From positions 33,591 through 97,590 of the forward strand of contig JBAZUR010000001.1 of the NCBI GenBank assembly GCA_041661305.1: a stretch of 64,000 nt of DNA, written 5' to 3'. The position numbers were made by a program, and so were the translations under genes. Under the pieces are notes generated by a model that saw only the letters and a program-made list of their open reading frames with translations, was not told where the DNA came from and made no database searches. Positions 6,372-52,904 of the stretch are shown in pieces (the stretch's first letter is position 1; each line of letters begins with the position of its first letter). The DNA is from Minisyncoccota bacterium. GTDB lineage: Bacteria > Patescibacteriota > Minisyncoccia > Phycocordibacterales > VMEP01.

Positions 6372-6376
6372 AAACA

Positions 6377-14035: not shown

Positions 14036-14464
14036 ATGCAAGATTCGCAAACTGTATCAGGAACAAAACCTGCCACCGGAAAGAAGGCCAAGCCAGCTTT
14101 CGGCAGGAAGAAGGTTACCCGCGTCGATCTTTTTTTCGACAAGGAAACCCCGGCTCCGTACCAGCGTCCGGCCGTCGCGTATTCGCCGGGTTTTACGGCG
14201 CGTTACATGATTCCGTGTCGTGTCGGGGAAAATGGCAGAATCAACGCCAACCTTTCCGAGCTTTGTGGCTTTCTCCGCAACAGCAATGTTTCGGTCATCG
14301 GCAAAAAGAAGGTGGTCGAGATCGAAGCGAAAAGGGGTCGGCACATGCGCCGAATGAAGCGCGAGGTCATTGACCCGGGCCCTGATTGCGAGGTCGTCGT
14401 CTTCACGAATATGACGACACCGCACTGTTACGCCCTGAAGTCACAGGTCGTGAGCGGCCTGTAG
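14036..14464 (+). CDS. Hypothetical protein, GC-rich (compositionally foreign)
   Basis: 142-aa ORF (start at ATG 14036 within ORF 13991..14464). Locally far more GC-rich than its surroundings, with a GC hairpin at 14486-14509 downstream. No recognisable family. Confidence 0.45.
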   Translation: MQDSQTVSGTKPATGKKAKPAFGRKKVTRVDLFFDKETPAPYQRPAVAYSPGFTARYMIPCRVGENGRINANLSELCGFLRNSNVSVIGKKKVVEIEAKRGRHMRRMKREVIDPGPDCEVVVFTNMTTPHCYALKSQVVSGL

Positions 14465-22880: not shown

Positions 22881-22908
22881 ATTTATATTTTAGCAAAATA
22901 AAAAACAT

Positions 22909-24402: not shown

Positions 24403-24463
24403 ACAAGTATCAGAAAACTATACCACTTGCTTTGTTTTATTTATATACCACCTAAAATCACAA

Positions 24464-25306
24464 TTATTGATTGGTTGGTTTAGCTATACCGGAAACAACA
24501 GAATTAACTTTTGAAAATAAATCTGGACTGTTTTCCTTCTCCTTTACATGATTGTCCTTGATATTTTTCATGGGCGAGGAATAAAGATCAGTGACGGCTC
24601 CAAGAATGAAGTCAAGTTTTTGCTGATAAGTAGTGGATTGGTAGTCAGAAAAAATTTCTTCAATTATATTTTTGTATGCTTCAAATGAGCGTGCGATAGC
24701 AGCTTTAAAAGTATATTCTTCAATGAGATTTCGTATCCGACCATATTCTCTACTGGTAAAAACGACAAAATAGACAATAGGGGAAGTCAGGGCAACTTTT
24801 ATTAGAAAGCTAACTTCAAATATAGTTTCTTTTTCTAGAATCTGCCAGACAACTATACCAACGGTGGCAATAATAAGAACGACCACTGCTCCAACTAGCC
24901 ACCAAAACCATTTTATTTTCTCTTTTCCCAACTCGTCCTTAACTCCTTCAAATGTACTCGCAAGCTTCGCATTTGCAGCCACCCCAAGTTGCGCCTGAGT
25001 CTCTTTAATAAACTCTTCTACTTTCTGTTGTAACTCTTTTGTTTTTTCAACTAAGTCGGACACTTCTCCTTCTCGTGTAATAACTTGTTCGTTTAGACTT
25101 TTTACCTCTGTGGTTATGCGGTTTAGTTCTTCGCTCCGTGTTGGCAAATCGTTTAGAAAAGAATCAATGTTAGTTTTTTTAGTTTGAGCGTCATTAATAA
25201 GATTTGGTAAACCCTGTCCTTGTTGAACAAGACTGTTTAAATCACCTAATGCCGTAAGTCGCTGATTTATCTCTGTAAGGACTTGTTGTAATTCTTTTTT
25301 ATTCAC
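24464..25306 (-). CDS. Coiled-coil membrane protein (hypothetical)
   Basis: N-terminal ~130 aa heptad-rich, two TM helices (FWWLVGAVVVLIIATVGIVVW; IKVALTSPIVYFVVF), C-terminal soluble tail. Confidence 0.5.
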   Translation of the reverse strand: MNKKELQQVLTEINQRLTALGDLNSLVQQGQGLPNLINDAQTKKTNIDSFLNDLPTRSEELNRITTEVKSLNEQVITREGEVSDLVEKTKELQQKVEEFIKETQAQLGVAANAKLASTFEGVKDELGKEKIKWFWWLVGAVVVLIIATVGIVVWQILEKETIFEVSFLIKVALTSPIVYFVVFTSREYGRIRNLIEEYTFKAAIARSFEAYKNIIEEIFSDYQSTTYQQKLDFILGAVTDLYSSPMKNIKDNHVKEKENSPDLFSKVNSVVSGIAKPTNQ

Positions 25307-25402
25307 AAATTTTTTTATCTAACTAATAATGTGGATAACTAGTTTTGGACTTTCTAGTTTTGTTCTAGTATAATTGATGGGTAAGAAACAAGTCAAGCCT
25401 AT

Positions 25403-26926
25403 ATGCTCACAAAACGCCAAAAAGAAGTTCTAGACTTCGTAGGAAGTTATTCCCAAAAGAAAGGTTATTCTCCATCGTTTGAAGAAATCAAAAAGCGACT
25501 TAAGCTCGCCTCTGTCTCAACTGTTCATTTCCATATATCAAAACTCAAAGAAGGTGGTTATTTAGGAAAAACAGAAAATAAGGCTCGTGCCATTAGTGTT
25601 GCGTCTAAAGAACCGATGATCAAAATCCCTCTTTTGGGAACTATCGCAGCCGGAGAGCCTATAGAGGCAATTCGTCAAAATGAGTTTATTGCTGTTCCTA
25701 AGAATGTATTACCTAGTACCGGTAATCTTTATGCTTTGAGAGTGATAGGAAATAGTATGATAGATGAAAATATTAAAAACGGAGATATTGTCTTAGTAAA
25801 ACAGCAAGATGTCGCGGAAAATGGAGAAAGGGTTGTTGCTTTAATTGATAATCATGAGGCAACGCTTAAGAAATTTTATAAAGAACGAGGATATATACGA
25901 CTTCAACCGGCAAATAAAACCTTTGAACCGATTATTATAAGAAAAGATCGTGACATTAAAATTCAAGGAGTTGTTATAGATGTTATTAAAAACGAGGAGG
26001 AATTACAGGCGGAGGAAATTACAATAATCAAAGAGACAAAAAAGGAAAGAAAGTTACCCCTTAATAAAATAATTTTAGGAGACGCTATCCAAGAACTAAG
26101 AAAACTCCCTAATGAAAGTTGTGATGTTGTTATAATTGATCCACCCTATAATATCGGTAAAGATTTTGGAAATAATATAGATAAAAGAGAACTTGGAGAA
26201 TATGTGGAGTGGTGTAAAAGTTGGATAGACGAAAGCATAAGAATCATGAAGCCAAATGGGACAATGTTTATTTATGGTTTTAGTGAAATTTTGGCTTACC
26301 TTTCTATTGAAATCCCGATACAAAAACGGTGGTTAATTTGGCATTATACAAATAAAAATGTTGCCTCACTCAATTTTTGGCAACGAAGCCATGAAGCAAT
26401 AATTTGCGCATGGAAAGATAAACCTGTTTTCAATAGGGATGAAGTTAGAGAACCATACACAGACGGCTTCCTAAATGGAGCTGCCGGCAAGGTAAGAAAA
26501 GGAACTCTCGGGAGATTTAGTAGCAGTGGTCTAGAAACTGTCTATAAAGCTCACGCGGGCGGGGCTCTGCCAAGAGATGTAATCAAAATTCCGGCTCTTG
26601 CTGGAGGAGCGGGAATGAACGAAAGATGGTTTTTGTGTAAAACCTGTGACGATGTTTGTGAACCACGACAACTGAAAAATCATGAGGGGCATGAAGTAAT
26701 GAAGCACCCGACACAAAAACCATTTGAGCTATCTAAGAAATTAATAAAATCTGCTATGCCTAAAAAGGACGGAATTGTGTTGGTTCCCTTCGTTGGTACT
26801 GGTTCAGAATGCGCGGCGGCAAAAGAATTAGGTCAATCGTATATTGGCTTTGAAATTAACCCTGACTATGTGAGGTTAGCTGAAAAAATGGTAGGCGATA
26901 AAAAATCGGTTGCCAAATTATTTTAA
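25403..26926 (+). CDS. Full-length LexA repressor fused in-frame to a DNA methyltransferase (beta-class N6A/N4C)
   Basis: Residues 1-200 align over their whole length with LexA: LTKRQKEVLDFV HTH, IAAGEP cleavage site, GNSM Ser and LKKFYK Lys. Residues ~230-507 carry VVIIDPPYN (motif IV), then C-terminal VLVPFVGTGSE (motif I) and a CxxC..H..H insert. Confidence 0.8.
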   Translation: MLTKRQKEVLDFVGSYSQKKGYSPSFEEIKKRLKLASVSTVHFHISKLKEGGYLGKTENKARAISVASKEPMIKIPLLGTIAAGEPIEAIRQNEFIAVPKNVLPSTGNLYALRVIGNSMIDENIKNGDIVLVKQQDVAENGERVVALIDNHEATLKKFYKERGYIRLQPANKTFEPIIIRKDRDIKIQGVVIDVIKNEEELQAEEITIIKETKKERKLPLNKIILGDAIQELRKLPNESCDVVIIDPPYNIGKDFGNNIDKRELGEYVEWCKSWIDESIRIMKPNGTMFIYGFSEILAYLSIEIPIQKRWLIWHYTNKNVASLNFWQRSHEAIICAWKDKPVFNRDEVREPYTDGFLNGAAGKVRKGTLGRFSSSGLETVYKAHAGGALPRDVIKIPALAGGAGMNERWFLCKTCDDVCEPRQLKNHEGHEVMKHPTQKPFELSKKLIKSAMPKKDGIVLVPFVGTGSECAAAKELGQSYIGFEINPDYVRLAEKMVGDKKSVAKLF

Positions 26927-27613
26927 AGCCTCATCCATTTCCTTTTTCTTCTGCTCAAAGGCGTAAGGAGTAAAAACAACGAAACCATTAGGGAATCGTT
27001 TTAATTCTTTGTTATCTTGGAACCTTTTATATGGGAGTTTATATTCGCCGTCCTTTTTCTTTGGGTTTTCAAAATACTCACTACTTGGAACTTCATAATT
27101 AATATCAATGAACTCGCCTTCTATTTTGTTTTTGACTCCTCCCTTACCACGCCTAACCTCGCCACTGAATGATTTCTTTTTAACTTGGTAGTTCAAGATT
27201 TTGCCTCTATATGTAATTTGAAAATCTGCTCCCTGATGGTCAAGCTCGCCTGACATAGAAACTGTGCCTTCGCCAAAAACTGATTCTGCAACATAACCGG
27301 CGTGGATTTGAGTGATTATACTCGCCCATGTTCTATAAATTCTAGCGGGCAATCCTTTATGAAAACATTCTTTACACATCCCAATTTTTTCTTGAAACTT
27401 TTTAATCTCTGCCCCATATTCACTCATATACTCTTTGTAAAATTCATCAAAACTTAGAAATTCTTTCTTCCCCCAGTATATTTTGTAGAGTAGGTTAATA
27501 GCTTGGATTTCTTTTGGTAAATCCATTTCCACGATCTTAACAGGTCTATATTTTTCACGATAGGACTTAAGGTCAACTGATTGTAAAAATTTGTCGAATT
27601 TTTGGACTAGCAT
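26918..27613 (-). CDS. Candidate type II restriction endonuclease (no recognisable family)
   Basis: 231 aa. Convergent with the MTase with a 9-nt 3' overlap. Immediately downstream of and co-oriented with the XRE controller gene. Possible D..(ADFQI)..K core. Confidence 0.4.
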   Translation of the reverse strand: MLVQKFDKFLQSVDLKSYREKYRPVKIVEMDLPKEIQAINLLYKIYWGKKEFLSFDEFYKEYMSEYGAEIKKFQEKIGMCKECFHKGLPARIYRTWASIITQIHAGYVAESVFGEGTVSMSGELDHQGADFQITYRGKILNYQVKKKSFSGEVRRGKGGVKNKIEGEFIDINYEVPSSEYFENPKKKDGEYKLPYKRFQDNKELKRFPNGFVVFTPYAFEQKKKEMDEALK

Positions 27614-27616
27614 AAA

Positions 27617-27835
27617 TTATAGAAAATATGATGACGGTTTTTGGTATATCTCTGCAAATTTTTTCATTTCTGCCACATCAAGCCTTCTTTCACCAGATTC
27701 AATCTTTGAGATAAAAGATTGTGGTTTCCCGAGCTTATCAGCAACATCTTGCTGTGCTAATCCGGCTTCAACACGCGCCTTTTTCAAGCGTCTTATAATC
27801 TCTTTGTAGTCCTTTGAATAAACAGATTTACTCAT
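27617..27835 (-). CDS. XRE-family HTH regulator (C-protein-like controller)
   Basis: MSKSVYSKDYKEIIRRLKKARVEAGLAQQDVADKLGKPQSFISKIESGERRLDV is a canonical HTH_XRE. Start taken at the internal ATG; the longer ORF extends into IR-A. Confidence 0.7.
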   Translation of the reverse strand: MSKSVYSKDYKEIIRRLKKARVEAGLAQQDVADKLGKPQSFISKIESGERRLDVAEMKKFAEIYQKPSSYFL

Positions 27836-27870
27836 GTATTTAGTATGATATATCCTTTTATGGTATAATC

Positions 27871-27897
27871 CCAAAATAGGATTATATAGAGTAGTTT
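27871..27897 (-). promoter_or_regulatory. Candidate C-box/operator palindrome upstream of the controller gene
   Basis: TATAATCC-tattttg-GGATTATA inverted repeat about 35-60 bp upstream of the XRE start. Confidence 0.35.
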
Positions 27898-27905
27898 TAC
27901 CCCTC

Positions 27906-28075
27906 GCCCCATCGCCCATACCTAAATCAAAGAATTTCCCGCCGGACTGATAAAGAATGGAGAGCGATGGGGCGAAGGGCGACCGCGCGTAATCGCGCGG
28001 TGGGCGCCGAGTGAAGCGAGGCGTTACGAGCTCCGCTCGAAAAAGGTTCGTGCAAAGGATAGAATTACATCACAA
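27906..28075. repeat. IR-A right copy (170 bp)
   Basis: Exact reverse complement of 21610-21779. Its outer 6 bp overlap IR-B left. Confidence 0.9.
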
Positions 28076-28206
28076 TTTGATACATCGGCTGGATTAAGAA
28101 AAAAATCGGCGTCCGCCTTCGGCGGAGTAAGTGGAGATAAAACGAAATCTGCCTTGCGGGTGCGGGCGAAATCGGAGGGCGGGCAAAATGAGATTGAGAT
28201 AGTTTT
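28070..28206. repeat. IR-B left copy (137 bp perfect inverted repeat)
   Basis: Exact reverse complement of 29624-29760. Confidence 0.9.
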
Positions 28207-28231
28207 TAAAGATTTTGAATCCAAAAGCGAT

Positions 28232-29818
28232 ATGTCTAAACCAAAATATTTTCTCTATGCTCGCAAGAGTACTGAAGATGACGATAAGCAAGTCATGAGT
28301 ATTGAAGCTCAATTGTTTGAACTTCGTGAGTTTGCGAGCAGAGAAAATCTTGAAATTATTGAGGAATTTCAAGAGTCAAAAAGCGCAAAGAGTCCGGGAC
28401 GAGAAGTGTTCGGCGTAATGATGATGCGTATAGAGAAAATGGGTAATGTTGGTATTCTCGCGTGGCATCCTGACCGCTTGGCGAGAAACAGTATTGATGG
28501 CGGACGCATCATTTACGCCGTAGACACTTCAAAAATCGTCTCTTTGCGTTTTCCGACATTTTGGTTTGAACCCACTCCGCAGGGGCTATTTATGCTTCAA
28601 GTGGCGTTCGGACAGTCCAAATATTATTCCGACAATTTGAAGCAGAATGTTGAACGAGGTATGCGCCAAAAACTGCGACGGGGCGAATGGCTGACACGCG
28701 CTCCCTTCGGGTATGTGAACAATCCTAAAACGCGCAATATTGAGCCGGATGTAGTGAAATCTAAAATTATTGTCCGCGCGTTTGGAGAATATGTAAAAGG
28801 AACACATACTCTAGAGTCGCTGTCGCAGTTTTTGGCTCTGCACGGTGTAGCGCAAAAGTCCGGAACGCCACTTGGCAAAGCTTCCGTGAAAAGAATTTTG
28901 ACTAATCGCGCTTATCTTGGATTCACTTTGCATCGCGGAGAATATTTTCCCGGAAGCTTTGCGCCAATTCTTTCTCCGACATTGTTTGAAGCTGTACAAA
29001 AAAGATTGGAAGAGCGAGCGCGTCCAAGACACAGCAAAATATCCCATAATTTTCCTTTCGTTGGTCTTTTTCGTTGTGGCGAGTGTGGCTCAATGATTAC
29101 CGCCCAATGGGCGACAAACCGGTGGGGTTCAAAGTATAGATATTATCGCTGTACGAAAAAGAAAGGAAAATGTTATCAGGGATATTTGAAAGAAGACGCT
29201 CTCGCTCTCCAAGTTAAGGAACAGCTTCAATCAGTGTCTATACCCCTAGCGTGGGCGGATTATATGCTCAAAAAAGTGGAAGAATTTGAGCATAACGAAA
29301 AACACGCTTCGGGAAATCGTCTCGGGCAGATGAAGGACAATCTGAAAACGCTTGAAGCGAAGTTAGACGCTCTTGTTGATTTGTATCTAAACCAAGACAT
29401 TGAGCGCGAGATATATCTGACGAAAAAGGACGCGCTCATGCGTCAAAAACTTTCGCTTCAAGCCAAATCTTCATCCGCCCGAGCCGTGAGAAAGAATTGG
29501 GTCGAACCCCTGCGGAAATGGATTTTGGATTCAAAACGCTCGGGGTTTCTCGCCACGAGCGAAAATCTCTATGAGATGAGAGATTTTCTTCGTTCCTTCG
29601 GAACGAACCCCTCGCTTAAAGACAAAACTATCTCAATCTCATTTTGCCCGCCCTCCGATTTCGCCCGCACCCGCAAGGCAGATTTCGTTTTATCTCCACT
29701 TACTCCGCCGAAGGCGGACGCCGATTTTTTTCTTAATCCAGCCGATGTATCAAATTGTGACCCTACAGGGAATCGAACCCTGGTTCCAAGCTTGAAAAGC
29801 TTGTGTCCTAACCGTTAG
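28232..29818 (+). CDS. Large serine recombinase (resolvase/invertase catalytic domain, recombinase domain and zinc ribbon)
   Basis: YARKSTEDDDKQVMSIEAQ (catalytic Ser), GILAWHPDRLAR, recombinase-domain segment and CGECGSMI...YRCTKKKGKC zinc ribbon. Start at MSKPKYF. The open frame runs through IR-B right into tRNA-Glu, so the true C-terminus is uncertain. Confidence 0.8.
   Translation: MSKPKYFLYARKSTEDDDKQVMSIEAQLFELREFASRENLEIIEEFQESKSAKSPGREVFGVMMMRIEKMGNVGILAWHPDRLARNSIDGGRIIYAVDTSKIVSLRFPTFWFEPTPQGLFMLQVAFGQSKYYSDNLKQNVERGMRQKLRRGEWLTRAPFGYVNNPKTRNIEPDVVKSKIIVRAFGEYVKGTHTLESLSQFLALHGVAQKSGTPLGKASVKRILTNRAYLGFTLHRGEYFPGSFAPILSPTLFEAVQKRLEERARPRHSKISHNFPFVGLFRCGECGSMITAQWATNRWGSKYRYYRCTKKKGKCYQGYLKEDALALQVKEQLQSVSIPLAWADYMLKKVEEFEHNEKHASGNRLGQMKDNLKTLEAKLDALVDLYLNQDIEREIYLTKKDALMRQKLSLQAKSSSARAVRKNWVEPLRKWILDSKRSGFLATSENLYEMRDFLRSFGTNPSLKDKTISISFCPPSDFARTRKADFVLSPLTPPKADADFFLNPADVSNCDPTGNRTLVPSLKSLCPNR
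29624..29760. repeat. IR-B right copy (137 bp)
   Basis: Reverse complement of 28070-28206. Ends exactly at the 3' end of tRNA-Glu. Confidence 0.9.
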
Positions 29819-29829
29819 ACGATAGGGCC
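29758..29829 (-). tRNA. tRNA-Glu (anticodon TTC)
   Basis: Reverse complement GGCCCTATCGTCTAACGGTTAGGACACAAGCTTTTCAAGCTTGGAACCAGGGTTCGATTCCCTGTAGGGTCA. Confidence 0.8.
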
Positions 29830-35873: not shown

Positions 35874-36506
35874 TTAATTAATTCCACCTGGGTAATAAGA
35901 GATACGGTTTAGCGGGAAAAGGCGAAAGAGGGCCTGGCCGACGATGGCGTCGCGCCTCACCGGACCAACCATTCGTGAATCAAGAGAGAGTGGTCGGTTA
36001 TCTCCCATAACAAAATATTGATCGTCTCCAAGTGTTGCTTCAAAATTACCCGTTTTGATATCTTTTAAATATGGCTCGGTGACAACAAATCCAGTTTTAT
36101 TTTCGGCATTTATTACTGTGAGAACGTTGTTTCTGTAGCGGAGAGTTTCACCAGGTAGACCCATTATGCGTTTAATCAAATTCTCAGACGCATTTCCAGG
36201 TTTTTTGACTATAACAACATCACCCCTTTTTGGCTCGTTAAAGCGATAGGAAATTTCGTCTACGATGAGGTATTCACCAGTTTCAAATGTTGGAGACATT
36301 GAAACGCCAGAAACTATAAATGGCTGAGCAATAAAATATCTGAAGGGAAGAACGATAAGTGCGGCGATAATCGCAAAACGGAAAATTTCTCCCCAGAATG
36401 ACTCTAGAGGTTTTTCTTTTTCGCTATTACTCATAGGTGGTGGCGTAATTTTTTCTCGCTCATCCATATTGTTTGCGAATGATACTACTTTTTTGTGTAT
36501 TGACAC
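35874..36506 (-). CDS. lepB: Signal peptidase I
   Basis: GVSMSPTF (catalytic Ser box), RGDVVIVKKPG and VMGDNRPLSLDSR boxes. Confidence 0.8.
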   Translation of the reverse strand: MSIHKKVVSFANNMDEREKITPPPMSNSEKEKPLESFWGEIFRFAIIAALIVLPFRYFIAQPFIVSGVSMSPTFETGEYLIVDEISYRFNEPKRGDVVIVKKPGNASENLIKRIMGLPGETLRYRNNVLTVINAENKTGFVVTEPYLKDIKTGNFEATLGDDQYFVMGDNRPLSLDSRMVGPVRRDAIVGQALFRLFPLNRISYYPGGIN

Positions 36507-37626: not shown

Positions 37627-37950
37627 ATGGCGAGACGCAAAAAACTGGTTCATAAGAGTATTTGGTTTGAGAGGACAAAGGCGAAAGATGGCACTGGGCC
37701 AAGGGAGAAGGCCTTTGCTCATACTTGGGAAAAGGAGAACGTTCCTCGGCGACATTTCCCGTTTTCCAATTCTTGTTCGCGCCTTGAAATGCTCATGCGC
37801 GATGAAGAAAAGTTGATTCCCGTGTCTCAGGAGTCAGCGACGGCAGTTGCGACGATTGTCCAGTGGCTTGGGTCAAATTGCGGGTGGGTCTTTCTCGAGG
37901 CGGCATTGCATAATGCCGGATACCGCATTGTTCCATTGAAAGAGAAGTGA
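37627..37950 (+). CDS. Hypothetical protein
   Basis: 107 aa. Followed by the terminator hairpin aatcgcccca-tgt-ggggcgatttttt at 37971-37996. Confidence 0.45.
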   Translation: MARRKKLVHKSIWFERTKAKDGTGPREKAFAHTWEKENVPRRHFPFSNSCSRLEMLMRDEEKLIPVSQESATAVATIVQWLGSNCGWVFLEAALHNAGYRIVPLKEK

Positions 37951-39477: not shown

Positions 39478-39990
39478 TCCCCCAATCCGGGTTTCGGTTT
39501 AGGGTCGTCTCGGTGGACGTCTGTACGGCGCGTGGCGCAGTTTCTGGCACATGGCTGTCTCCAATTTGTTTTGGATGTTGCTTAGGGTTTTATTCGAACC
39601 CCGAGTTTTAAAACTCCTTTCTCTTGTTGAAGATTTAATTGAGGATTTGGCCGGGGCAACACTTTCGTGTGGTCGCCCCGGCCTCCCCAAACGCGGGAGG
39701 TTTTCCCGCGAACCAGATTGTCCGCCGGTGGAGTTTAGCCCAATGTGGGAATTCTCTCCGAGCGAGGCGCGACATCTGGCACTACCCCAACTTTCGTTGG
39801 GTACTTCTGGCTTGCCGTTGCCCTGGTTTCAGGTCGTGCCGGCGGCCGCGCAGTTGTCGCTGATCGTCTTGCCCTGGTTGATTTCGTTGAATTTTAAACA
39901 ACACTCCTCACTTGCCGTTGCCGGCGGTCCGTGCATATACATGGCGATCTCCTCTAGAACTTCAGCCTTTGGTTTTTTAGGTTAGAAACC
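39478..39990 (-). ncRNA. GC-rich structured non-coding RNA candidate of unknown class
   Basis: About 500 nt with no credible ORF. GC far above flanks. Minus-sense hairpins with GNRA loops (cccaacGAAAgttggg at 39785-39800; ggccggggc...acacGAAAgtgt...gccccggcc at 39651-39685) and cctccc/gggagg stems. Ends at a terminator. Confidence 0.4.
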
Positions 39991-45617: not shown

Positions 45618-46151
45618 ATGGCTTTTTTAGTTCCTAATGAAATTGTAAAAAATCTTTCTATTGAAGAGGGGATGGTTATTGCCGACATCGGCGCAGGCTC
45701 TGGTTCGTTTGTAATTCCACTCGCATATTTTGTAGGGAATACTGGGCACGTCTATGCAATTGATATAAATAAAGAAGTTTTGGTTAAGGTAAAAAAGGAC
45801 GCGGCTTCTGCTCAGCTTTCTAATATAGAGATTATTTGGGGCGATGCGGAGAAGTCTGGTGGAACAAAATTGGCCGATAGCTCTGTTGATTTTGTTATTA
45901 TTTCAAACATTCTTTTTCAGACTGAAAATAAGAAAGGTTTGGTTGAAGAAGTTAGACGTATTTTAAAGATGAAGGGGAAGGTTGCTGTTATAGATTGGAC
46001 CGGTTCTTTTGGTGGGCTTGGACCAAAAGAGAACACTGTCTTTTCGCTTGCTAATGCACAGAAACTTTTTACTGATTTTTCATTTGCAGAGTATAATAAA
46101 TTCGATGCCGGTGATTACCACTACGGTATTACTTTTGTAAAAAATAAATGA
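45618..46151 (+). CDS. Class I SAM-dependent methyltransferase
   Basis: VIADIGAGSGSFVIPLA motif I. Confidence 0.75.
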   Translation: MAFLVPNEIVKNLSIEEGMVIADIGAGSGSFVIPLAYFVGNTGHVYAIDINKEVLVKVKKDAASAQLSNIEIIWGDAEKSGGTKLADSSVDFVIISNILFQTENKKGLVEEVRRILKMKGKVAVIDWTGSFGGLGPKENTVFSLANAQKLFTDFSFAEYNKFDAGDYHYGITFVKNK

Positions 46152-47452
46152 AACCATTTCAGATTATTGTTCTTGCGATATTTTCCGTTTTTTTAATAAT
46201 TGGGGTTCTTATTTTTTCTGGGATTATAAAACTTCCAGGAAGTGGAGAGAATAATGGTGTTTCAGGGGAAGTTGTTATTTGGGGGACTTTACCAACTTCG
46301 TATTTTGATAAAATATTTAGTGATTTTAATCAAAGTCACCAAAAAGAATCATTTTCTGTTCGCTATATTGAAAAAGATCAGAGTACTTTTGATAGTAACT
46401 TAGTTGAGTCAATTGCCGCTGGTGTTGGCCCAGACCTTGTTTTTTTACCGCAGGATCTTTTTTTGCGCCACTCAAGCAAGATCTACCCTCTTTCCTTACA
46501 GACAGTCTCAGAGAGAGATTTTAAAAATACTTTCATTGAGGAAGGGGAACTATTTTTCTTTAATGGAAACGCTCTCGCAATACCATTCACTATTGACCCG
46601 ATGATGTTGTATTGGAATCGCGACTATTTTTCTGCGGCAGGTTTTTCAAAGCCACCACAATATTGGGAAGAATTTTTTTCAATGATTCCACAGCTCACCT
46701 CTAAAGATGGCGCTACAAATATAATAAAAAGTGGAGTTGCTTTTGGCGAATCAAAAAATATTTCAAACGCTAAGGATATTCTTGCGATGCTCATAATGCA
46801 GGCTGGAAGCAATATTGTTTCCTACTCTCCTTCAAAAGGAGTGGAAGTGTCTTTGAGTCAGAACAATACGAGCGGTATTCAGGCTGGTGAGGCAGCCCTA
46901 CAGTTTTATTCAGAGTTCTCTGATCCAGTTAAGGAGCATTACTCTTGGAATAAATCCCTACCTTCTTCTAGGAGTATGTTTTTGGCGGGCGATTTGGCAA
47001 TGTATTTTGGATACGCAAGCGAGATTTCAGATTTACGAGCACGAAATCCACATTTAAATTTTGATATCGCAATGGTTCCACAAACAAAAGGGGCTAGTAA
47101 AAAAACAACGTTTGGAAAAATGCACGGCCTCGCAACACTCAAAAGCTCAAAGAATTTGGCGACAGCTCTTTACATCGAAGTTCTGTTGTCCCAACCTGAT
47201 TTTATGAAAAACATCCCAACATATTCATATCTACCGCCAACACGTCGTGACTTGCTACAAGTTCGCCCTTCTGATCCATACCTTTCAATTTTTTATGACG
47301 CAGCCATTATTTCCAGAGCTTGGCTTGACCCGGCTCCTAAAGAAACCAGTATTATTTTTGCTAACATGATTGATAATGTTGTTTCTGGAAGATTTAGACC
47401 ACAAGAAGCTGTGGCAGACACCGCGTCACAATTAGAAAGATTGATTAAATAA
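46148..47452 (+). CDS. Extracellular solute-binding protein-like (family 1 SBP fold), membrane anchored
   Basis: N-terminal TM anchor and periplasmic-binding-protein-like layout. No adjacent permease genes. Confidence 0.5.
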   Translation: MKPFQIIVLAIFSVFLIIGVLIFSGIIKLPGSGENNGVSGEVVIWGTLPTSYFDKIFSDFNQSHQKESFSVRYIEKDQSTFDSNLVESIAAGVGPDLVFLPQDLFLRHSSKIYPLSLQTVSERDFKNTFIEEGELFFFNGNALAIPFTIDPMMLYWNRDYFSAAGFSKPPQYWEEFFSMIPQLTSKDGATNIIKSGVAFGESKNISNAKDILAMLIMQAGSNIVSYSPSKGVEVSLSQNNTSGIQAGEAALQFYSEFSDPVKEHYSWNKSLPSSRSMFLAGDLAMYFGYASEISDLRARNPHLNFDIAMVPQTKGASKKTTFGKMHGLATLKSSKNLATALYIEVLLSQPDFMKNIPTYSYLPPTRRDLLQVRPSDPYLSIFYDAAIISRAWLDPAPKETSIIFANMIDNVVSGRFRPQEAVADTASQLERLIK

Positions 47453-47455
47453 AAT

Positions 47456-47857
47456 ATGAATTTTAATAAAAAATTTTTAGTAGCGAGAAAGGTTGGAATT
47501 TTTGTTTTAACAGCAATTATAATTTTGTCGCCAGTTGTTGTTTCTTCAGCGGGACTAGTTCCTTGTGGGGGAAACGGTGAGGCGCAGTGTGGCTACAAGG
47601 ACCTTATTATAATGGGGGGTAAAATTATTAATTTTCTAATTGAGACCTCAGTAGTTATTGCTTTACTTCTGTTCACTTACGCTGGTTTTCTCCTCGCCTT
47701 TAGTGGTGGGGATACTGGGGCAATGTCAAAAGCTAGAGCAATATTTTGGAATGTAGTGAAGGGTTTAGTTATCGCTCTTGCGGCTTGGTTAATTATAGAC
47801 ACGATTTTGAGCGTGTTGCTTAAAGGGGATGGTTTTAGGCAATATGTTCCACTTTAG
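47456..47857 (+). CDS. Pilin-like small membrane protein (TrbC/VirB2-like), paralog 1 of 5
   Basis: Signal/TM, then two hydrophobic helices separated by the charged loop GGDTGAMSKARA. Confidence 0.45.
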   Translation: MNFNKKFLVARKVGIFVLTAIIILSPVVVSSAGLVPCGGNGEAQCGYKDLIIMGGKIINFLIETSVVIALLLFTYAGFLLAFSGGDTGAMSKARAIFWNVVKGLVIALAAWLIIDTILSVLLKGDGFRQYVPL

Positions 47858-47917
47858 ATTTTTGCTGTATAATTATTTTATAATTATTTTATAATTAATT
47901 TACTAAAGAAAGTTTCA

Positions 47918-48316
47918 ATGAAAAAAAATAAAGTAAAAAGAATTTCTGCTTTGGTCGCGACAAATCTAACTATCTTTTTATTTTTATTACTTCCATTTTT
48001 CACAATTGTTTCGGCGCAACAGATTCCACTACAGGGAACTACTCCAAAACTTCAAAACCCACTCGGGAGTAGCAATAATAGCCTTACTGCTTTTGCCAAC
48101 TCTATCGTAGACGCAGTGGTGACGGTCGGTCTCCCGATTGCCGCCTTGATGATTGTCTACTCCGGTTTTCTTTTTGTTAAAGCTCGCGGAAACCCCTCTG
48201 AGCTTGAAGTTGCAAAAAGAGCGTTTTTTTACGCGCTTGTAGGTATCGCTATAATTTTGGGGGCAAAAGTTTTGTCGGAAGTCATAAAAGGGACGATTGA
48301 TGTTTTAAGGAGCTAA
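47918..48316 (+). CDS. Pilin-like small membrane protein, paralog 2
   Basis: Same architecture. Loop ARGNPSELEVAKRA. Confidence 0.45.
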   Translation: MKKNKVKRISALVATNLTIFLFLLLPFFTIVSAQQIPLQGTTPKLQNPLGSSNNSLTAFANSIVDAVVTVGLPIAALMIVYSGFLFVKARGNPSELEVAKRAFFYALVGIAIILGAKVLSEVIKGTIDVLRS

Positions 48317-48329
48317 TTAATAAATAATT

Positions 48330-48719
48330 ATGAAAAAAATGAAAAAAGGAAAGTTTGCGGTTTTAGGATTAGCTAGTTTAATGGTGTTCCCAGTGGTTGC
48401 GCATGGCATCTCAGATTTCGCGGGTCTTGTAAATTTTATTACTGACACAATAATCATGTCGCTTATTAAACTGATTGGTGCACTTGCGACACTATTTTTC
48501 TTGTGGGGTGTAATGAAATTCATAAAGGATGCAGATAATCCAGCAAAGAGAGCCGAAGGACAACAATTCATTCTTTATGGTCTTATAGGACTTTTTGTTA
48601 TGGTCTCTTTTTACGGAATTGTTCGAATTCTTGAGAATACATTTCAACTACCAACAAACAACACTTCTGTAGGAAGTTCCTATCCAGCAGGTAAAACTGG
48701 GTCAAGCTACTCGCTATAG
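48330..48719 (+). CDS. Pilin-like small membrane protein, paralog 3
   Basis: Same architecture. Loop KDADNPAKRAEGQQ. Confidence 0.45.
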   Translation: MKKMKKGKFAVLGLASLMVFPVVAHGISDFAGLVNFITDTIIMSLIKLIGALATLFFLWGVMKFIKDADNPAKRAEGQQFILYGLIGLFVMVSFYGIVRILENTFQLPTNNTSVGSSYPAGKTGSSYSL

Positions 48720-48884
48720 TCGTTGAGTGTTTTAGGACTAAGGAAACTTTTGTTGATAGCGTTTAATCCCTCCTAAAAAACAACATTATCCCCAGACTTG
48801 TCGAAAAACCCTTTGTCTTGTGTTAAAATACATTGAGCTTAATAAAGTCGTTTAGTTTAGCATTAATTTAAAAATATATTACGT

Positions 48885-49319
48885 ATGAAAAAAGTAGTCA
48901 CAGCCATAGCAGCCGCAGGTTTGCCTGTAATCGCTCTCGCTCAAACAGTTGATGCGATTTTTGTGAAAATCATGACCCTCATCAATTATCTAACGATCAT
49001 TGTTGTGGCATTGTCTGTTTTGGCATTTTTCTGGGGTTTGTTTAAGTTCATTACTAACGCAGGGGAAGAGAAAGATGAAGGACGTCACATAATGATCTGG
49101 GGTATCCTCGCTCTCTTTGTGATGCTTTCAGTTTGGGGTCTTGTTGGCGTTGTTGGTAATACTTTCGGTATTCAACAAGGAGGTGCAGTGAATATTCCTG
49201 GAATTTCTGGCACATATGGTGGAATTAACACGGGTGGAGTCAATACTGGAGGAGTTAACACTGGCGGTGTTTCAGGTGGAATTAATGTTTCAGGTGGAAT
49301 TAATATTCCAATTCGTTAA
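48885..49319 (+). CDS. Pilin-like small membrane protein, paralog 4, with Gly-rich repetitive C-terminal tail
   Basis: Loop NAGEEKDEGRH. C-terminal tail GGINTGGVNTGGVNTGGVSGGINVSGGINIP. Confidence 0.45.
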   Translation: MKKVVTAIAAAGLPVIALAQTVDAIFVKIMTLINYLTIIVVALSVLAFFWGLFKFITNAGEEKDEGRHIMIWGILALFVMLSVWGLVGVVGNTFGIQQGGAVNIPGISGTYGGINTGGVNTGGVNTGGVSGGINVSGGINIPIR

Positions 49320-49373
49320 TAAATCTTAAGATATAAAACGCGCCACTTTTAGGCGCGTTTTTGTCACTCTAAT

Positions 49374-49652
49374 ATGATTGCTGAAGCTGCAACACAATTA
49401 CAAAACGGAGCAGATAGCCTTGTTCAAAAACTAGTGGTTAATATCATTAACCCAATTACTGGGCTTCTTGGTGCTCTTGCAATAGCTTTTTTCCTTTTTG
49501 GTGTTCTTCAATTCATAATCAATTCTGATAACGAAGATGGTATAGAACGAGCTAAGAAATATATGATGTGGGGATTAATCGGTTTGTTTATCATGGTGAG
49601 CGCCTGGGGCGTTATAGGCCTAATTCAGGGTACTATTAGTTCTGCTAGATAA
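49374..49652 (+). CDS. Pilin-like small membrane protein, paralog 5
   Basis: Loop SDNEDGIERAKKY. Shared WG(L/V)IGLF(I/V)MVS..G motif with paralogs 3 and 4. Confidence 0.45.
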   Translation: MIAEAATQLQNGADSLVQKLVVNIINPITGLLGALAIAFFLFGVLQFIINSDNEDGIERAKKYMMWGLIGLFIMVSAWGVIGLIQGTISSAR

Positions 49653-49679
49653 AAGTTTTGTGCTCATAAAAACAACTCC

Positions 49680-49715
49680 GATTTTCATCGGAGTTGTTTT
49701 GTTTTGTATAAAAAG
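49680..49715 (+). terminator. Rho-independent terminator after the pilin array
   Basis: aacaactccgat-tttc-atcggagttgtt followed by TTGTTTTG. Confidence 0.65.
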
Positions 49716-49764: not shown

Positions 49765-50223
49765 TCAGCTCCTGAGGCGCATTTTCACCGGCTGCTTCTC
49801 GCCGTCGTCGAGGAGGAGACAGATTCTCGATCCCGCTTCAAAGCTACGCACAGGGGCCCGTTGATTTGGACCAATGCGCATCACCTCTCCGTCGGGATAG
49901 AAAACCTTTATGTTGCCACCCTTTCCGACAGCCGCCAGTATTGAATCACCGGCAGGAATCGTCACGCACGCTGGCGAGTTGGCGGTGACCAAGAAAAACA
50001 TCTCTGTTCCACCACCGGTCCGTCCCTGCGCTTTCCCCGCCACCGTAACACTCTCAGTTTCAGTTCGATACTTCTCGATGTAGCCGTTTGTGACGGAGTA
50101 GAAGGCGTAGAGGAATATCGGGATGGATACCCACCAGAACGCCTTCGGGATCAGAGATATTGGTTTTTGGCTTAACCCCACTATCTCCGGCTCTTTCATA
50201 CGACCAATGTGCTCTTCGCTCAT
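49765..50223 (-). CDS. NfeD-like membrane protein (short form; OB-fold C-terminus), partner of the SPFH protein
   Basis: N-terminal TM (AFWWVSIPIFLYAFY) and beta-rich C-terminus. 4-nt overlap with the upstream SPFH gene; GC-rich like it. Confidence 0.45.
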   Translation of the reverse strand: MSEEHIGRMKEPEIVGLSQKPISLIPKAFWWVSIPIFLYAFYSVTNGYIEKYRTETESVTVAGKAQGRTGGGTEMFFLVTANSPACVTIPAGDSILAAVGKGGNIKVFYPDGEVMRIGPNQRAPVRSFEAGSRICLLLDDGEKQPVKMRLRS

Positions 50224-51401
50224 GGCTTACCCTTTCCCTCAGGTTTCCCGGAGTTGGGAGTTTTGGCAAAAAGACCGGAAACGAAGTTTATTACTGCCTC
50301 CATTCCCTCACCCTTTATTTCCTGAACGTTGTGGTGGACGGTTTTGGTAACTGCTTTTCCAAGCACCATCGCCGCCTCCATCGCCTCTTTGTCGGAGATT
50401 GCTTCACCTCCGCCTGAGCTCTTCTTTTGAAGCACTTCCGCCGTTTCCTTCACCTTCTTGGCGATTTCCCTTGTTGCCAGAGCTTCCTGGAACTTCGGAT
50501 CGTAGTCGATGTCGGATATTGCGACGAGAATCAAGTCGATGCCGTACGCCTCTTCGTATGATGCTGGCGCCGTCGAACGACCTTCTTCTCTGAGAGCCTC
50601 TTTCTTTTCGTTGAGTTCCTTGATTTTGTCGAGGTACTCGTCGATGGCTTTGATTACCAGGCTCTCTCGCTTCTTCCAGATCTCCTTGTCAGAAACATTG
50701 GCAAGGGGGGCGACGCCGTTCGTATTACTTTCGGTCGGCTCTTGTAGCTCGAGTTGAATTTCGTACTCGTAGTGCCCTTTCACACAGTTTTCGATGCGCT
50801 TGATGTTCTTTCTGGCCGTCTCGGCGGTGAGGTTGGCAAAAATCTGCGCGAGAAAACTCGAGCCGATATCGTGCAAACCACCGTCAATCACAGTTTTGTC
50901 GACCGCGATGTACTTGCCGATGTTGCCACGCATCCCACGGTATTGGAATCCCCACACCACATGAAGCATTACGCCGTCGAGCGCTGGGTAAGTTTCACCC
51001 TTCTCGAAATCCTTGGCGAATATCCTCAAGTTGATGTAGTTTCCCGGCTTGACCTGTTCCCAGGGAAACCGTAAATGGATTCCCGTTTGGTATTCCTTGA
51101 GCTCTCCGCCGAAGAGGTTGACCGTGATAAGCGATGTCACCTCCGGAACGGAAACAAGGAAGTAGGGAAGAGAACGACCCAGAAGCAAAAGCCAAATGGC
51201 CATTGCAAAGAGAGCGACCTCTTTCTGGAACATTCCCATGCCGAACGTTGCAAACGCGAAGGAAAGCAAAAACTTGGTGACCAAAAACAAGGCCACACAG
51301 AAAGAGAGAAGGAGAGCTATCTCCCACCCCTTGTCTGTTCGGAACATAGGAACCGGCTTTCCTGCTGGAGCAATGTTGGTGTTCATAACTTCTCCTTTCA
51401 A
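50220..51401 (-). CDS. SPFH/band-7 (stomatin/prohibitin-like) domain membrane protein
   Basis: N-terminal TMs, then VSVPEVTSLITVNLFGGELKEYQTGIHLRFPWEQVK...DGVMLHVVWGFQY SPFH core. Long C-terminal coiled coil. Confidence 0.7.
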   Translation of the reverse strand: MKGEVMNTNIAPAGKPVPMFRTDKGWEIALLLSFCVALFLVTKFLLSFAFATFGMGMFQKEVALFAMAIWLLLLGRSLPYFLVSVPEVTSLITVNLFGGELKEYQTGIHLRFPWEQVKPGNYINLRIFAKDFEKGETYPALDGVMLHVVWGFQYRGMRGNIGKYIAVDKTVIDGGLHDIGSSFLAQIFANLTAETARKNIKRIENCVKGHYEYEIQLELQEPTESNTNGVAPLANVSDKEIWKKRESLVIKAIDEYLDKIKELNEKKEALREEGRSTAPASYEEAYGIDLILVAISDIDYDPKFQEALATREIAKKVKETAEVLQKKSSGGGEAISDKEAMEAAMVLGKAVTKTVHHNVQEIKGEGMEAVINFVSGLFAKTPNSGKPEGKGKP

Positions 51402-51563: not shown

Positions 51564-51749
51564 CTCGTAGAAACTGGAGGGGGAAACTCGGTCACGAATA
51601 ATTTTGAGGACAAAATTTTCGCGACCCCGGCTCGCTGTCGCAGAGCGACATGCTCCGTCTTTCGAGTCTCCACACAAGCCAAGCAGTTGGCTTGTTCCTC
51701 CAGCACATAATTAAAAAACACACCCTAAAGGGTGTGTTTTTTAATTATG
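51564..51749 (-). repeat. tRNA-associated miniature element downstream of tRNA-Leu(TAG)
   Basis: Copy ctggagggggaaactcg of the tRNA-Leu 3' segment fused to M motif ggtcacgaataattttgaggacaaaattttcgcgaccccggctcg (51579-51623). Box ccgtctttcgagtctcc. Hairpin caagccaagcagttggcttg. 48-bp perfect palindrome terminator (51706-51753). Confidence 0.65.
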
Positions 51750-51831
51750 TGCTGGAGGGGAGACTCGAACTCCCAAGCCTTGCGGCATTAGTTCCTAAGA
51801 CTAACGCGTATACCAATTCCGCCACTCCAGC
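51750..51831 (-). tRNA. tRNA-Leu (anticodon TAG)
   Basis: Reverse complement GCTGGAGTGGCGGAATTGGTATACGCGTTAGTCTTAGGAACTAAT...GGGAGTTCGAGTCTCCCCTCCAGCA (long variable arm). Confidence 0.8.
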
Positions 51832-51870
51832 AAGTTGTTTGTCGCCAATATAAAAATACTACACGTATCG

Positions 51871-52021
51871 CAAGAGTCGGTCACGAATAATTTTGAAGAC
51901 AAAATTTTCGCGACCCCGGCTCACCTCGTTTTGTAAGAACAAAACATGGTTCCGCCTTTCGACTCCTGCCCGCAAGTGAAGCAGTTCACTTGCTTGAGCG
52001 GATATCTCGCTGCGCTCAATG
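51871..52021 (-). repeat. tRNA-associated miniature element downstream of tRNA-Lys
   Basis: M motif 51879-51923 (loop gaagac), preceded by a partial tRNA-like copy caagagtcg. Box ccgcctttcgactcctgc is an inverted copy of the tRNA-Lys T-region. Hairpin caagtgaagcagttcacttg. Confidence 0.6.
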
Positions 52022-52094
52022 TCCGCCCAGCAGGAGTCGAACCTGCGACCATTTGCTTAAGAGGCAACTGCTCTACCAACTGAGCTATGGGCGG
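52022..52094 (-). tRNA. tRNA-Lys (anticodon CTT), unusual C1:G72 first pair
   Basis: Reverse complement CCGCCCATAGCTCAGTTGGTAGAGCAGTTGCCTCTTAAGCAAATGGTCGCAGGTTCGACTCCTGCTGGGCGGA. Confidence 0.7.
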
Positions 52095-52136
52095 ATATAT
52101 ATAATTTTATACTAACTTTGTTAGCATCTACCAACT

Positions 52137-52264
52137 GGTCACTCATAATTTCTTGCTAGAAATTTGCTCGACCCCGACTCGCCTCGTCAGGCTCCGTCTC
52201 TCAATTGCTTCACATGTCGCAATTGAGCCCCGCCCGTACTGAACGTACGTTCGGGCTGGTATGG
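52137..52264 (-). repeat. Degenerate tRNA-associated element (variant M') flanked by fragments of tRNA-Lys
   Basis: Variant motif ggtcactcataatttcttgctagaaatttgctcgaccccgactcg. Preceded by tctaccaactg (a copy of the tRNA-Lys D-region) and followed at 52250-52262 by ggtatgggcggat (a copy of the tRNA-Lys 5' end). No intact tRNA attached. Confidence 0.5.
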
Positions 52265-52367
52265 GCGGATATTTCTAACGAGTTGAATCATAGCAATTTA
52301 TTGCATATTTTTCAATGAAAATAGGGAAAAGGACTCGGGGTAGAAAAGGGACAGTATTTTTTTCTTG

Positions 52368-52474
52368 TGGTCACGTATAATTTCTTGCTAGAAATTTACG
52401 CGACCCCGCCTCGCGCCGTCGCGCTCCGGCCGGGACCAAATAAAAATACTCACTTAGGTGAGTATTTTTATTTG
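52368..52474 (-). repeat. tRNA-associated element (variant M') downstream of tRNA-Leu(TAA)
   Basis: ggtcacgtataatttcttgctagaaatttacgcgaccccgcctcg. Then a 40-bp perfect palindrome terminator ccaaataaaaatactcac-ttag-gtgagtatttttatttgg abutting the tRNA 3' end. Confidence 0.55.
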
Positions 52475-52557
52475 GTGCCCGGAGTGGGACTCGAACCCAC
52501 ACGACCTATTGGCCAACAGATTTTAAGTCTGTAGCGTCTACCATTCCGCCATCCGGG
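52475..52557 (-). tRNA. tRNA-Leu (anticodon TAA)
   Basis: Reverse complement GCCCGGATGGCGGAATGGTAGACGCTACAGACTTAAAATCTGT...GTGGGTTCGAGTCCCACTCCGGGCA. Confidence 0.8.
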
Positions 52558-52599
52558 CAAATTTAAAATATTTTATTCTACTTAAATAAACTAAGCAAA

Positions 52600-52772
52600 A
52601 ATTGCTTGAGGCCTAGGGCGGAATCGGTCACGAATAATTTTTACTACCTGCAAAAATTTTCTCGACCCCGGCTCGCGATTTTGTCTGCTGACAAAATATC
52701 GCTCCGCCTTTCGCTTCCGTCACATCCCGCAAGCAGTTGCGGGATTCTATGCCGTCGGAACTTCCTCTAGGA
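52600..52772 (-). repeat. tRNA-associated miniature element downstream of tRNA-Cys
   Basis: 21-nt exact direct copy ttgaggcctagggcggaatcg (52600-52620) of the tRNA-Cys 3' trailer, acceptor and T-loop (52780-52800). It is fused to M motif 52620-52669. Box ccgcctttcgcttcc. Hairpins catcccgcaagcagttgcgggat and acttcctctaggaagt. Confidence 0.7.
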
Positions 52773-52844
52773 AGTATCCTTGAGGCCTAGGGCGGAATCG
52801 AACCGCCGTATAAGAGTTTTGCAGACTCTCGCCTTACCACTTGG
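52773..52844 (-). tRNA. tRNA-Cys (anticodon GCA), U73 discriminator
   Basis: Reverse complement GGCCTAGTAGCCAAGTGGTAAGGCGAGAGTCTGCAAAACTCTTATACGGCGGTTCGATTCCGCCCTAGGCCT. Confidence 0.85.
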
Positions 52845-52904
52845 CTACTAGGCCTTAATTATCACATGGCCAATTAGCCAGTGTGTTATAGCACATAGGG
52901 CATT

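Follow-up and report, generated by a model that had tools for sequence, protein, structure and literature searches.

Five paralogs of the VirB2/TrbC pilin superfamily, probably with fixed and distinct roles, in a conserved gyrA-adjacent operon of Paceibacteria

Five consecutive genes for small membrane proteins with homology to conjugative pilins were studied in a 64,000-nucleotide stretch of DNA from a Minisyncoccota bacterium (assembly GCA_041661305.1, contig JBAZUR010000001.1, positions 33,591 to 97,590), referred to below as the window. The genes, called P1 to P5 in 5´ to 3´ order along the plus strand, are anciently diverged paralogs of the VirB2/TrbC superfamily. In this Paceibacteria genome from groundwater they are located at the distal end of an operon that lies beside gyrA and is conserved in the class, and their hairpin-shaped products would probably be assembled by a distantly encoded type IV secretion system (T4SS), each in a fixed role of its own. 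The window has a GC content of 40% and is a gene-dense housekeeping stretch, with genes for GyrA, IF2, ClpB, MurJ and FtsZ/FtsA-like proteins, 12 tRNAs and the RNase P RNA. The array and its flanks recur in independent groundwater assemblies, and the exact sequence of P5 has been deposited under the locus tag WC724_00495 of a 'Candidatus Paceibacterota bacterium'.

An earlier note, made from the sequence of the window, had described five consecutive genes of 92–144 amino acids, and all five were found on the plus strand at the positions it gives. P1 (47456-47857, 133 amino acids) is the divergent paralog; it has a signal-like N-terminus and two cysteines, C37 and C45, followed by a helix-loop-helix hairpin. 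P2 (47918-48316, 132 amino acids) consists of a signal peptide, a linker of ~25 residues modelled with low confidence and a hairpin, and is the TrbC/VirB2-like member. P3 (48330-48719, 129 amino acids) ends in a variable C-terminal tail rich in Ser, Thr and Asn. The tail of P4 (48885-49319, 144 amino acids) is Gly-rich, of the form (GGxNT)n, and the repeat that the earlier note had seen in the fourth paralog, GGINTGGVNTGGVNTGGVSGGINV, is indeed located close to its C-terminus. The DNA that encodes it, at 49217-49304, is a tandem repeat, resolved by Tandem Repeats Finder into 3.2 copies of a 15-nucleotide unit (49217-49264) and 2.1 copies of an 18-nucleotide unit (49268-49304). P5 (49374-49652) is the shortest with 92 amino acids, lacks a signal peptide and gives the best match to the Pfam family PF18895 among the five.

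Two hydrophobic helices separated by a short charged loop are seen in the hydropathy profiles of all five proteins, as the earlier note had proposed, and in AlphaFold2 models of P2 and P5. The P5 model is a hairpin of helices 2-49 and 54-90 with a predicted local distance difference test score (pLDDT) of 87.9, and the P2 model shows a helix at residues 3-28, an unstructured part at 29-53 and a hairpin of helices 54-88 and 93-131 with a core pLDDT above 88. A signal-like N-terminus, ascribed by the note to every member, is present in P1 to P4, which have three hydrophobic segments, but not in P5, which has two only. The P5 frame is not extendable upstream, and the N-terminal sequence MIAEAAT... 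is shared by its orthologs. In P1 to P4, a basic n-region and a hydrophobic h-region precede plausible cleavage sites, read by eye, between SSA and G, VSA and Q, AHG and I, and ALA and Q, respectively. The shared motif WG(L/V)IGLF(I/V)MVS was likewise only in part confirmed: it can be recognised in P3 (YGLIGLFVMVS), P4 (WGILALFVMLS) and P5 (WGLIGLFIMVS) but not in P1 and P2.

The resemblance to TrbC/VirB2 pilins came out positive in profile searches, with PF18895 matching P2 to P5 and PF04956 matching P2. With PF18895 (T4SS_pilin, gathering cut-off 26.6 bits), P2 scored 41.2, P3 31.1, P4 33.2 and P5 43.9 bits, and P1 with 18.3 bits stayed below the cut-off; the E-values of the five adjacent matches range from 2.6e-11 to 2.4e-3. 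PF04956 (TrbC/VirB2, gathering cut-off 27.9 bits) matched P2 with 29.8 bits and did not match P1, P3, P4 or P5. Genes in second position of diverse loci (n = 26) behave like P2, since PF18895 matches 26 of them and PF04956 23 at E ≤ 0.01. On this profile evidence, P2 is the bridge from the array to the classical VirB2/TrbC pilins. The NCBIfam model NF045849, which describes pilin-like proteins of Mycoplasma integrative and conjugative elements (ICEs), matched P5 over its full length with 39.6 bits, just under the cut-off of 40 bits, and P2 to P4 weakly.

Sequence identity inside the array is low. Pairwise values are 16–40%, and 24–40% for the detectable pairs; in BLASTP, P3, P4 and P5 are mutually 33–40% identical, with P3 and P5 as the closest pair (40%), P1 and P2 share 25%, and P1 has no detectable match to P3, P4 or P5. 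Ortholog alignments were compared at the level of three paralog types (P1, P2 and P3-5) with hhalign, which gave probabilities of 99.0% for the P1 against the P2 type (E 8e-18), 98.1% for the P2 against the P3-5 type (E 1e-13) and 97.0% for the P1 against the P3-5 type (E 8e-11). Because these mutual probabilities reach 97.0–99.0%, all five proteins belong to one superfamily. The PF18895 matches of P1 orthologs range from weak to full. A profile search of 1.84 billion cluster representatives returned 66,042 family members at E ≤ 1e-3, some of which are named 'pilin' by NCBI. The word 'pilin' is used in this text as a label that rests on homology.

Small size and two transmembrane helices are also found in holins, in bacteriocin or immunity peptides and in other small membrane proteins of phage or defence systems, and to this generic extent such an assignment would fit the array. 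None of the five proteins has a match in PHROG, no relatives occur on 2.9 million viral contigs, and the genes lie in a conserved chromosomal block whose housekeeping context is kept across ~90 loci; the profiles point to pilin families instead. We therefore reject this explanation, which appears extremely improbable. Pilin profiles do match and an association of homologues with holin or bacteriocin systems was not seen, the two points on which the earlier note had let its reading depend. Pilins of type IV pili were likewise rejected as candidates, since none of the five proteins shows the class III signal (G, cleavage, then F/M-x-x-x-E) within its first 40 residues or has a Pfam match to a type IV pilus family.

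The array is not an isolated group of genes. Upstream on the same strand lies a gene for an S-adenosylmethionine (SAM)-dependent methyltransferase of 177 amino acids (45618..46151; Pfam Methyltransf_31/11/25, UbiE), probably the first gene of the operon, which overlaps by 4 nucleotides the start of a gene for a protein resembling solute-binding proteins (SBPs). This SBP (46148..47452, plus strand) has 434 amino acids and an N-terminal membrane anchor, matches SBP_bac_8 with 74 bits and SBP_bac_1 with 50 bits, and its stop codon is located 3 nucleotides before the start of P1. Among solved structures, 4r9f ('MBP1') is its closest relative, with a full-length match at E 3e-16, and sugar-binding SBPs come next. 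The SBP is an orphan: no permease or ATPase of an ATP-binding cassette (ABC) transporter was found within ±10 kb of it in Pfam-annotated relatives.

The SBP also served as an independent seed among GTDB species representatives, where at least 483 matches were confirmed. Of these, the 80 best loci with their flanks of ±10 kb were analysed; their SBPs are 37–83% identical to that of the window, and they represent Kaiser-, Zambryski-, Wolfe-, Campbell-, Nomura-, Vogel- and Terrybacteria and others. The genomic context was also looked up for nine pilin queries (P5, P0040, P0037, P0024, P0105, P0074, P0120, P0071 and P0079) and inspected for 13 Pfam-annotated relatives. All nine pilin-seeded look-ups showed the same order of genes, namely Lactamase_B_3, a gene for 90 amino acids, GyrA, usually the SAM methyltransferase, the SBP, five to six PF18895 genes and then variable genes. 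In the SBP-seeded set, a pilin array follows the SBP on the same strand, with a gap of a few nucleotides after the SBP stop, in 78 of the 79 evaluable loci (78 of 80 in total). The non-evaluable locus, L075, has only 292 nucleotides of sequence beyond the SBP, and the sole genuine exception is L073, in which the SBP is not followed by pilins. In this locus ~950 nucleotides downstream (6940-7896) contain no plus-strand open reading frame (ORF) of more than 35 amino acids, which might be due to decay of the array, to a problem with the assembly or to inserted non-coding DNA. Of the 80 loci, 74 encode GyrA in the flanks and 65 have the methyltransferase upstream of the SBP, and the methyltransferase is also present in most of the Pfam-annotated relatives.

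Hidden Markov models (HMMs) made from the alignments of the three paralog types matched 390 of the 5,472 ORFs in the 80 loci, and all 390 are located inside arrays, none elsewhere in the flanks. Five adjacent matches to one Pfam family, together with HMM matches confined to arrays, mean that the array is more than a chance assembly of similar hairpins. Its size could be counted in 63 loci with sequence past the array: five genes, the number in the window, is the modal size (26 loci), followed by six (23), four (9), seven (4) and two (1).

The paralogs keep their order. Among 78 arrays, the P1-type profile is the best match of the first gene in 61, and a two-cysteine motif is found in this gene in 57; C37 and C45 are invariant in P1 orthologs. 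For the second gene, the P2-led family profile is the best in 68 of 74 arrays. The largest intergenic gap (median 104 nucleotides) lies directly before the penultimate gene in 55 of 65 arrays, and the last gene (median 92 amino acids) encodes two hydrophobic segments without a signal peptide in 59 of 65. Conservation was compared between the window and three relatives with a GyrA that is 97% identical, whose arrays correspond gene by gene, and in the same order, to P1 to P5. P4 is the most conserved paralog (85–88% identity), followed by P5 (79–83%), and both are about level with IF2 (87–88%) and RbfA (85–89%). The SBP reaches 80–83% and the methyltransferase 70–72%, with P2 (64–67%), P3 (62–65%) and P1 (61–64%) below them. 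The divergence between orthologs is found mostly in signal peptides and exposed tails, and the hairpin cores are nearly invariant, which argues that the paralogs are old, ordered and individually constrained.

Arrays of divergent pilins have been discussed as a source of variation, and the five genes could be thought of as interchangeable versions of one major pilin, a cassette for antigenic or host-range variation. The low identity within the array, near the published mean of 25%, would be in line with this, as would the exposed C-terminal tails: the Ser/Thr/Asn-rich tail of P3 is strongly different between orthologs, the number of repeats in P4 varies, and array size changes from four to seven genes between species. 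However, orthologs correspond one to one and in the same order, P4 and P5 are conserved about like the housekeeping proteins IF2 and RbfA, and the features of each type (the two cysteines of P1, the TrbC-likeness of P2, the missing signal peptide of P5) are kept across dozens of species. In addition, we saw no signature of recent duplication or gene conversion, the closest pair being only 40% identical. Orthology and conservation thus argue against a hypervariable cassette, which we reject, and exchangeable pilin versions are very unlikely in general. The pattern most likely reflects fixed, non-redundant roles of the paralogs, as judged from sequence comparison.

The signals for expression might divide the operon further. 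In the 165-nucleotide gap between P3 and P4, a promoter scan found a promoter-like element at 48801-48829 on the plus strand (TCGAAA, a 17-nucleotide spacer and a TG-extended TAAAAT), and the last ~110 nucleotides of this gap are almost invariant in five relatives. Among distant arrays, any version of the -35/extended -10 pattern was present in the P4 gap in just 22 of 65, so that the putative promoter is supported in close relatives only. A structured RNA in the P4 leader was considered and rejected, as there was no Rfam match and no significant fold (z = 0.2); the conservation of the leader is attributed to promoter or untranslated-region function. Between P4 and P5, a GC-rich hairpin followed by a U-run is located at 49330-49365 on the plus strand (-18.7 kcal/mol, z = -5.8). 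Its position is kept in relatives while the stem sequence differs, and it is absent from most distant arrays and thus lineage-specific; it is predicted to act as terminator or attenuator or to stabilise an mRNA 3´ end. The array is closed by an intrinsic terminator at 49669-49700 on the plus strand, with a 14-bp stem and a T-run (-25.6 kcal/mol, z = -8.3). Two expression units might result, one with the methyltransferase, the SBP, P1, P2 and P3 and a second one with P4 and reduced read-through into P5. Because P4 has a promoter-like element of its own, the highest conservation and a hairpin after it, it is the best candidate for the major subunit, and such a role seems likely. In the spacer between P1 and P2 (47868-47902), an 11-nucleotide unit (TATAATTATTT) is repeated 3.2 times, which places three phased TATAAT-like boxes directly upstream of P2.

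The genes for a T4SS ATPase or channel, which the earlier note had not seen in the window, are indeed not encoded in the 64 kb, nor in ~8 kb upstream and ~3 kb downstream of it. The window contains ~55 coding sequences (CDS) upstream and ~15 downstream of the array without a virB4, unlike the proximity within ±20 CDS mapped in a survey of Patescibacteria (PMC12102498), which reports the virB4 of Paceibacteria near dnaA and dnaN and thus at a different locus. For the 80 related loci, the ten largest of 36 flanking ORFs of at least 450 amino acids without a match to a window protein were inspected, and these include SMC, FtsK, PrkA, PurL, P-type ATPases and a histidine kinase. Neither among these ten nor in the gene context of the 13 Pfam-annotated relatives was a virB3, virB4 or virB6 seen. 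LiPW_30, a member of the same genus with an identical array, is scored as VirB4-positive in Table S1 of that survey (PMC12102498). A T4SS link of the array is suggested by homology, by the precedent of the Saccharibacterium Southlakia epibionticum and by LiPW_30.

A type I signal peptidase (Peptidase_S26) is encoded at 35874-36506 on the minus strand, 11 kb upstream of the array, and 38 of the 80 related loci have a homolog at no more than 10 kb from the SBP. TraF, which matures TrbC pilins, is a peptidase of the S26 family as well. The enzyme in the window is probably a housekeeping one.

Outside the window, the search uncovered single polypeptides with 2–15 helix-loop-helix pilin units behind one N-terminal signal peptide, connected by linkers of 25–35 amino acids (P0121, P0122, P0129, P0206 and P0232). 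They are the best-scoring family members, for example one of 606 amino acids with 7 units and one of 1,775 amino acids with 15 units, and one is named 'pilin [Candidatus Paceibacterota bacterium]' by NCBI. They appear to be real fusions and not the product of stop-codon read-through. The fusion of different units suggests that these pack side by side, which would favour a heteromer.

Several points weigh against pilins that are assembled by a T4SS. Neither the P3-5 nor the P2 profile found a solved pilin by sequence, and Foldseek returned generic helical hairpins alone (best E 0.16). To our knowledge, no PF18895 protein has been experimentally shown to polymerise or to form a filament. VirB4, VirB6 and VirD4 were not found near the array in the window, in its extensions or within 10 kb in ~90 related loci. 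Covalent chains of up to 15 units are a poor fit to a classical pilus that is fed with monomers. Finally, of the seven array-bearing metagenome-assembled genomes (MAGs) that could be matched by name to the survey (PMC12102498), four are scored as VirB4-positive and three as negative, against a base rate of 80%; with so small a sample and with MAGs that can be incomplete, this difference is not significant.

These points give some room to a different explanation, in which the hairpins were recruited away from a pilus role and form a T4SS-independent hetero-oligomeric ring or channel in the membrane, with the co-transcribed SBP, similar to maltose-binding protein (MBP), capturing or taking up a sugar or glycan of the host. 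The constant coupling of SBP and array over a few nucleotides, the lack of a nearby permease or ATPase for the SBP, the distance from virB4 in every locus examined, the three VirB4-negative MAGs and the polyproteins, in which 3–15 units behind a single signal peptide suggest packing side by side, would all be compatible with it. Yet gyrA and the methyltransferase are syntenic as well, so that the linkage may be historical and not functional; since gyrA too belongs to the conserved block, synteny is not sufficient to prove a functional link between SBP and pilins. Furthermore, the family is homologous to TrbC/VirB2, the homologous array of Saccharibacteria is located inside a T4SS cluster and is essential, and four VirB4-positive MAGs of seven are compatible with the base rate. 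We know of no precedent for an SBP working together with hairpin proteins of two transmembrane helices. A membrane assembly of this kind is therefore unlikely.

The coupling of SBP and array is nevertheless the most intriguing feature of the locus, and the SBP may have a role in connection with the pilins. It might also be speculated that SBP, methyltransferase and ordered pilins form one apparatus, with the SBP as module for host recognition or substrate capture, either as an unprecedented T4SS pilus of a monoderm that is tipped or fed by the SBP, or as a T4SS-independent, pilin-derived membrane conduit scavenging host material; in that case, the poly-pilin fusions would represent this heteromer in covalent form. 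We consider this quite unlikely.

For T4SS-assembled pilin paralogs with distinct roles, the reading we prefer, the following course of events can be envisaged. P1 to P4 would be exported by the Sec pathway and cleaved by signal peptidase I, and P5 would be inserted into the membrane via its first helix. Each subunit would then form a helix-loop-helix hairpin in the membrane, exposing its N- and C-terminus on the outside and keeping the short charged loop on the inner side. From there, a T4SS of the VirB4 type with its genes at another locus, in this class near dnaA (PMC12102498), would extract the subunits and assemble them into a heteromeric surface filament or conduit for contact with the host cell. 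P4 would probably be the major subunit and the other paralogs minor, initiating or tip subunits, and interchangeable antigenic variants would not be expected.

Pilin arrays as such have been published before, and the interpretation of the five proteins as pilins is supported. That multi-copy arrays are common in bacteria of the Candidate Phyla Radiation (CPR), as the earlier note had stated, is borne out by the literature (PMC12102498, PMC10633639, PMC12857230). Wang et al. 2023 (PMC10633639) described a VirB2-like pilin array in the T4SS cluster of Southlakia epibionticum ML1 (SEML1_0006-0019), where the array is essential (PMC10633639; PMC12857230). Quinonero-Coronel et al. 2025 searched 3,035 Patescibacteria genomes with PF04956 and PF18895 and found 441 VirB2 arrays of 2–11 genes in 383 assemblies, with a mean identity within arrays of 25% and a maximum of 54% (PMC12102498). 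These arrays were most abundant in Microgenomatia and Saccharimonadia, the legend of Fig. S9 reads 'VirB2 array near virB4', and host-range or antigenic diversification was suggested for them (PMC12102498).

The array described here shares with these the phylum, the Pfam families PF18895 and PF04956 and the tandem arrangement of divergent pilins, and its five genes compare with six in S. epibionticum and 2–11 in the survey. It differs in that theirs lie in or near a virB4 cluster, whereas in every locus examined here the array is more than 10 kb away from T4SS genes, and in that it is found in Paceibacteria, at the gyrA locus and in an operon with a methyltransferase and an orphan SBP. Essentiality is known for S. 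epibionticum only. An association with a methyltransferase or SBP is not mentioned in PMC10633639 or PMC12102498, and gyrA is not mentioned in PMC12102498. In the literature searched, we did not find a class-wide methyltransferase-SBP-pilin operon without linkage to virB4, a fixed order of paralogs or a terminal paralog without signal peptide, and these appear to be new elements.

Compared to TrbC of RP4 and VirB2 of the Agrobacterium Ti plasmid, the proteins are similarly small and have the same build, in which a long putative signal peptide precedes two hydrophobic helices that flank a short charged loop, and P2 passes the PF04956 cut-off. In contrast to these systems, P1, P3, P4 and P5 have no PF04956 match, there are five paralogs instead of one gene, virB3 and virB4 are not adjacent, P5 is without a signal peptide, the host is probably a monoderm, no dedicated TraF-like maturation peptidase is evident and sequence matches to solved pilins are missing. 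The Mbov_0395/MMCAP2_0565 family of Mycoplasma ICEs (NF045849) offers a parallel as a short (~80 amino acids) two-helix protein of the T4SS of a wall-less monoderm, but it is encoded inside a mobile conjugative element, whereas the array lies on the chromosome, outside any ICE, and keeps its synteny across species. The host-associated bacteria Bartonella and Anaplasma also have virB2-like genes amplified in tandem (cited in PMC12102498); there the copies are located in the virB locus and are read as antigenic or host-range variants, while here they are old, ordered and individually conserved.

Paceibacteria are the largest class of the phylum and have almost no cultured members. The T4SS of Patescibacteria has been described as unique among monoderms in its potential for conjugative pili (2025 review, PMC12857230), and its role as "completely unknown" (2024 perspective, PMC11665869), so that the function of these secretion systems and their pilins is an acknowledged open question. 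A rigid operon across dozens of candidate lineages makes parts of it testable: which paralog is the major one, whether the P5 and P1 types have a role at base or tip, and whether the SBP takes part in host recognition. Surveys that are anchored on virB4 miss the main pilin locus of Paceibacteria.

Downstream of the array and convergent to it, a gene pair on the minus strand (49765-51401) encodes an SPFH/Band_7 protein of 393 or 388 amino acids and a membrane protein of 152 amino acids, with an overlap of 4 nucleotides. The earlier note had called this a GC-rich SPFH-NfeD operon, and its GC richness and the SPFH protein were confirmed (Band_7 32.4 bits, cut-off 23.6), but NfeD was not: the 152-amino-acid partner has no Pfam match at E ≤ 1, NfeD included, and no PHROG match. 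The pair has a GC content of 0.51–0.54 and a GC content at third codon positions of 0.63, compared to ~0.30 in neighbouring genes, and is GC-rich in close relatives too. It is compositionally foreign, and it evolves fast, since the SPFH protein is 24–66% and its partner 34–42% identical to orthologs, compared to 97% for GyrA. Between this pair and rbfA-infB, a cluster of tRNA genes (51749-52854, minus strand) comprises Leu-TAG, Lys-CTT, Leu-TAA and Cys-GCA. In relatives the interval contains genes for FolD, a rhodanese and a methyltransferase instead, and it is thus a variable spot beside the conserved block.

Another part of the window, 22311-29829, is possibly an integrated element. It encodes a GC-rich (0.52), proline-rich helix-turn-helix protein, a protein of 497 amino acids with PD-(D/E)XK and RNase H-like parts, a restriction-modification pair and a large serine recombinase (28154-29818), whose 3´ end overlaps a tRNA-Glu gene (29757-29829) with a tRNA-Ser gene just beyond. 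The pair, at 25403-27613, consists of an unusual fusion protein of 507 amino acids, in which a LexA DNA-binding domain is joined to an S24 peptidase and an N6/N4 DNA methyltransferase, and of a TaqI-family restriction endonuclease encoded directly next to it on the other strand. The arrangement resembles a restriction-modification system in which the methylase carries a LexA-type self-cleaving repressor module. GC-rich islands at 13991-14464, 37627-37950 and 39551-39985 (GC 0.50–0.53, compared to 0.40 for the genome) contain questionable ORFs only and have no Rfam match at the gathering threshold. The class A RNase P RNA is located at 6008-6375 on the plus strand, with a score of 104 bits, just above the gathering score of 100, and because of this RNA the GC-rich ORF at 6035-6334 is regarded as spurious.

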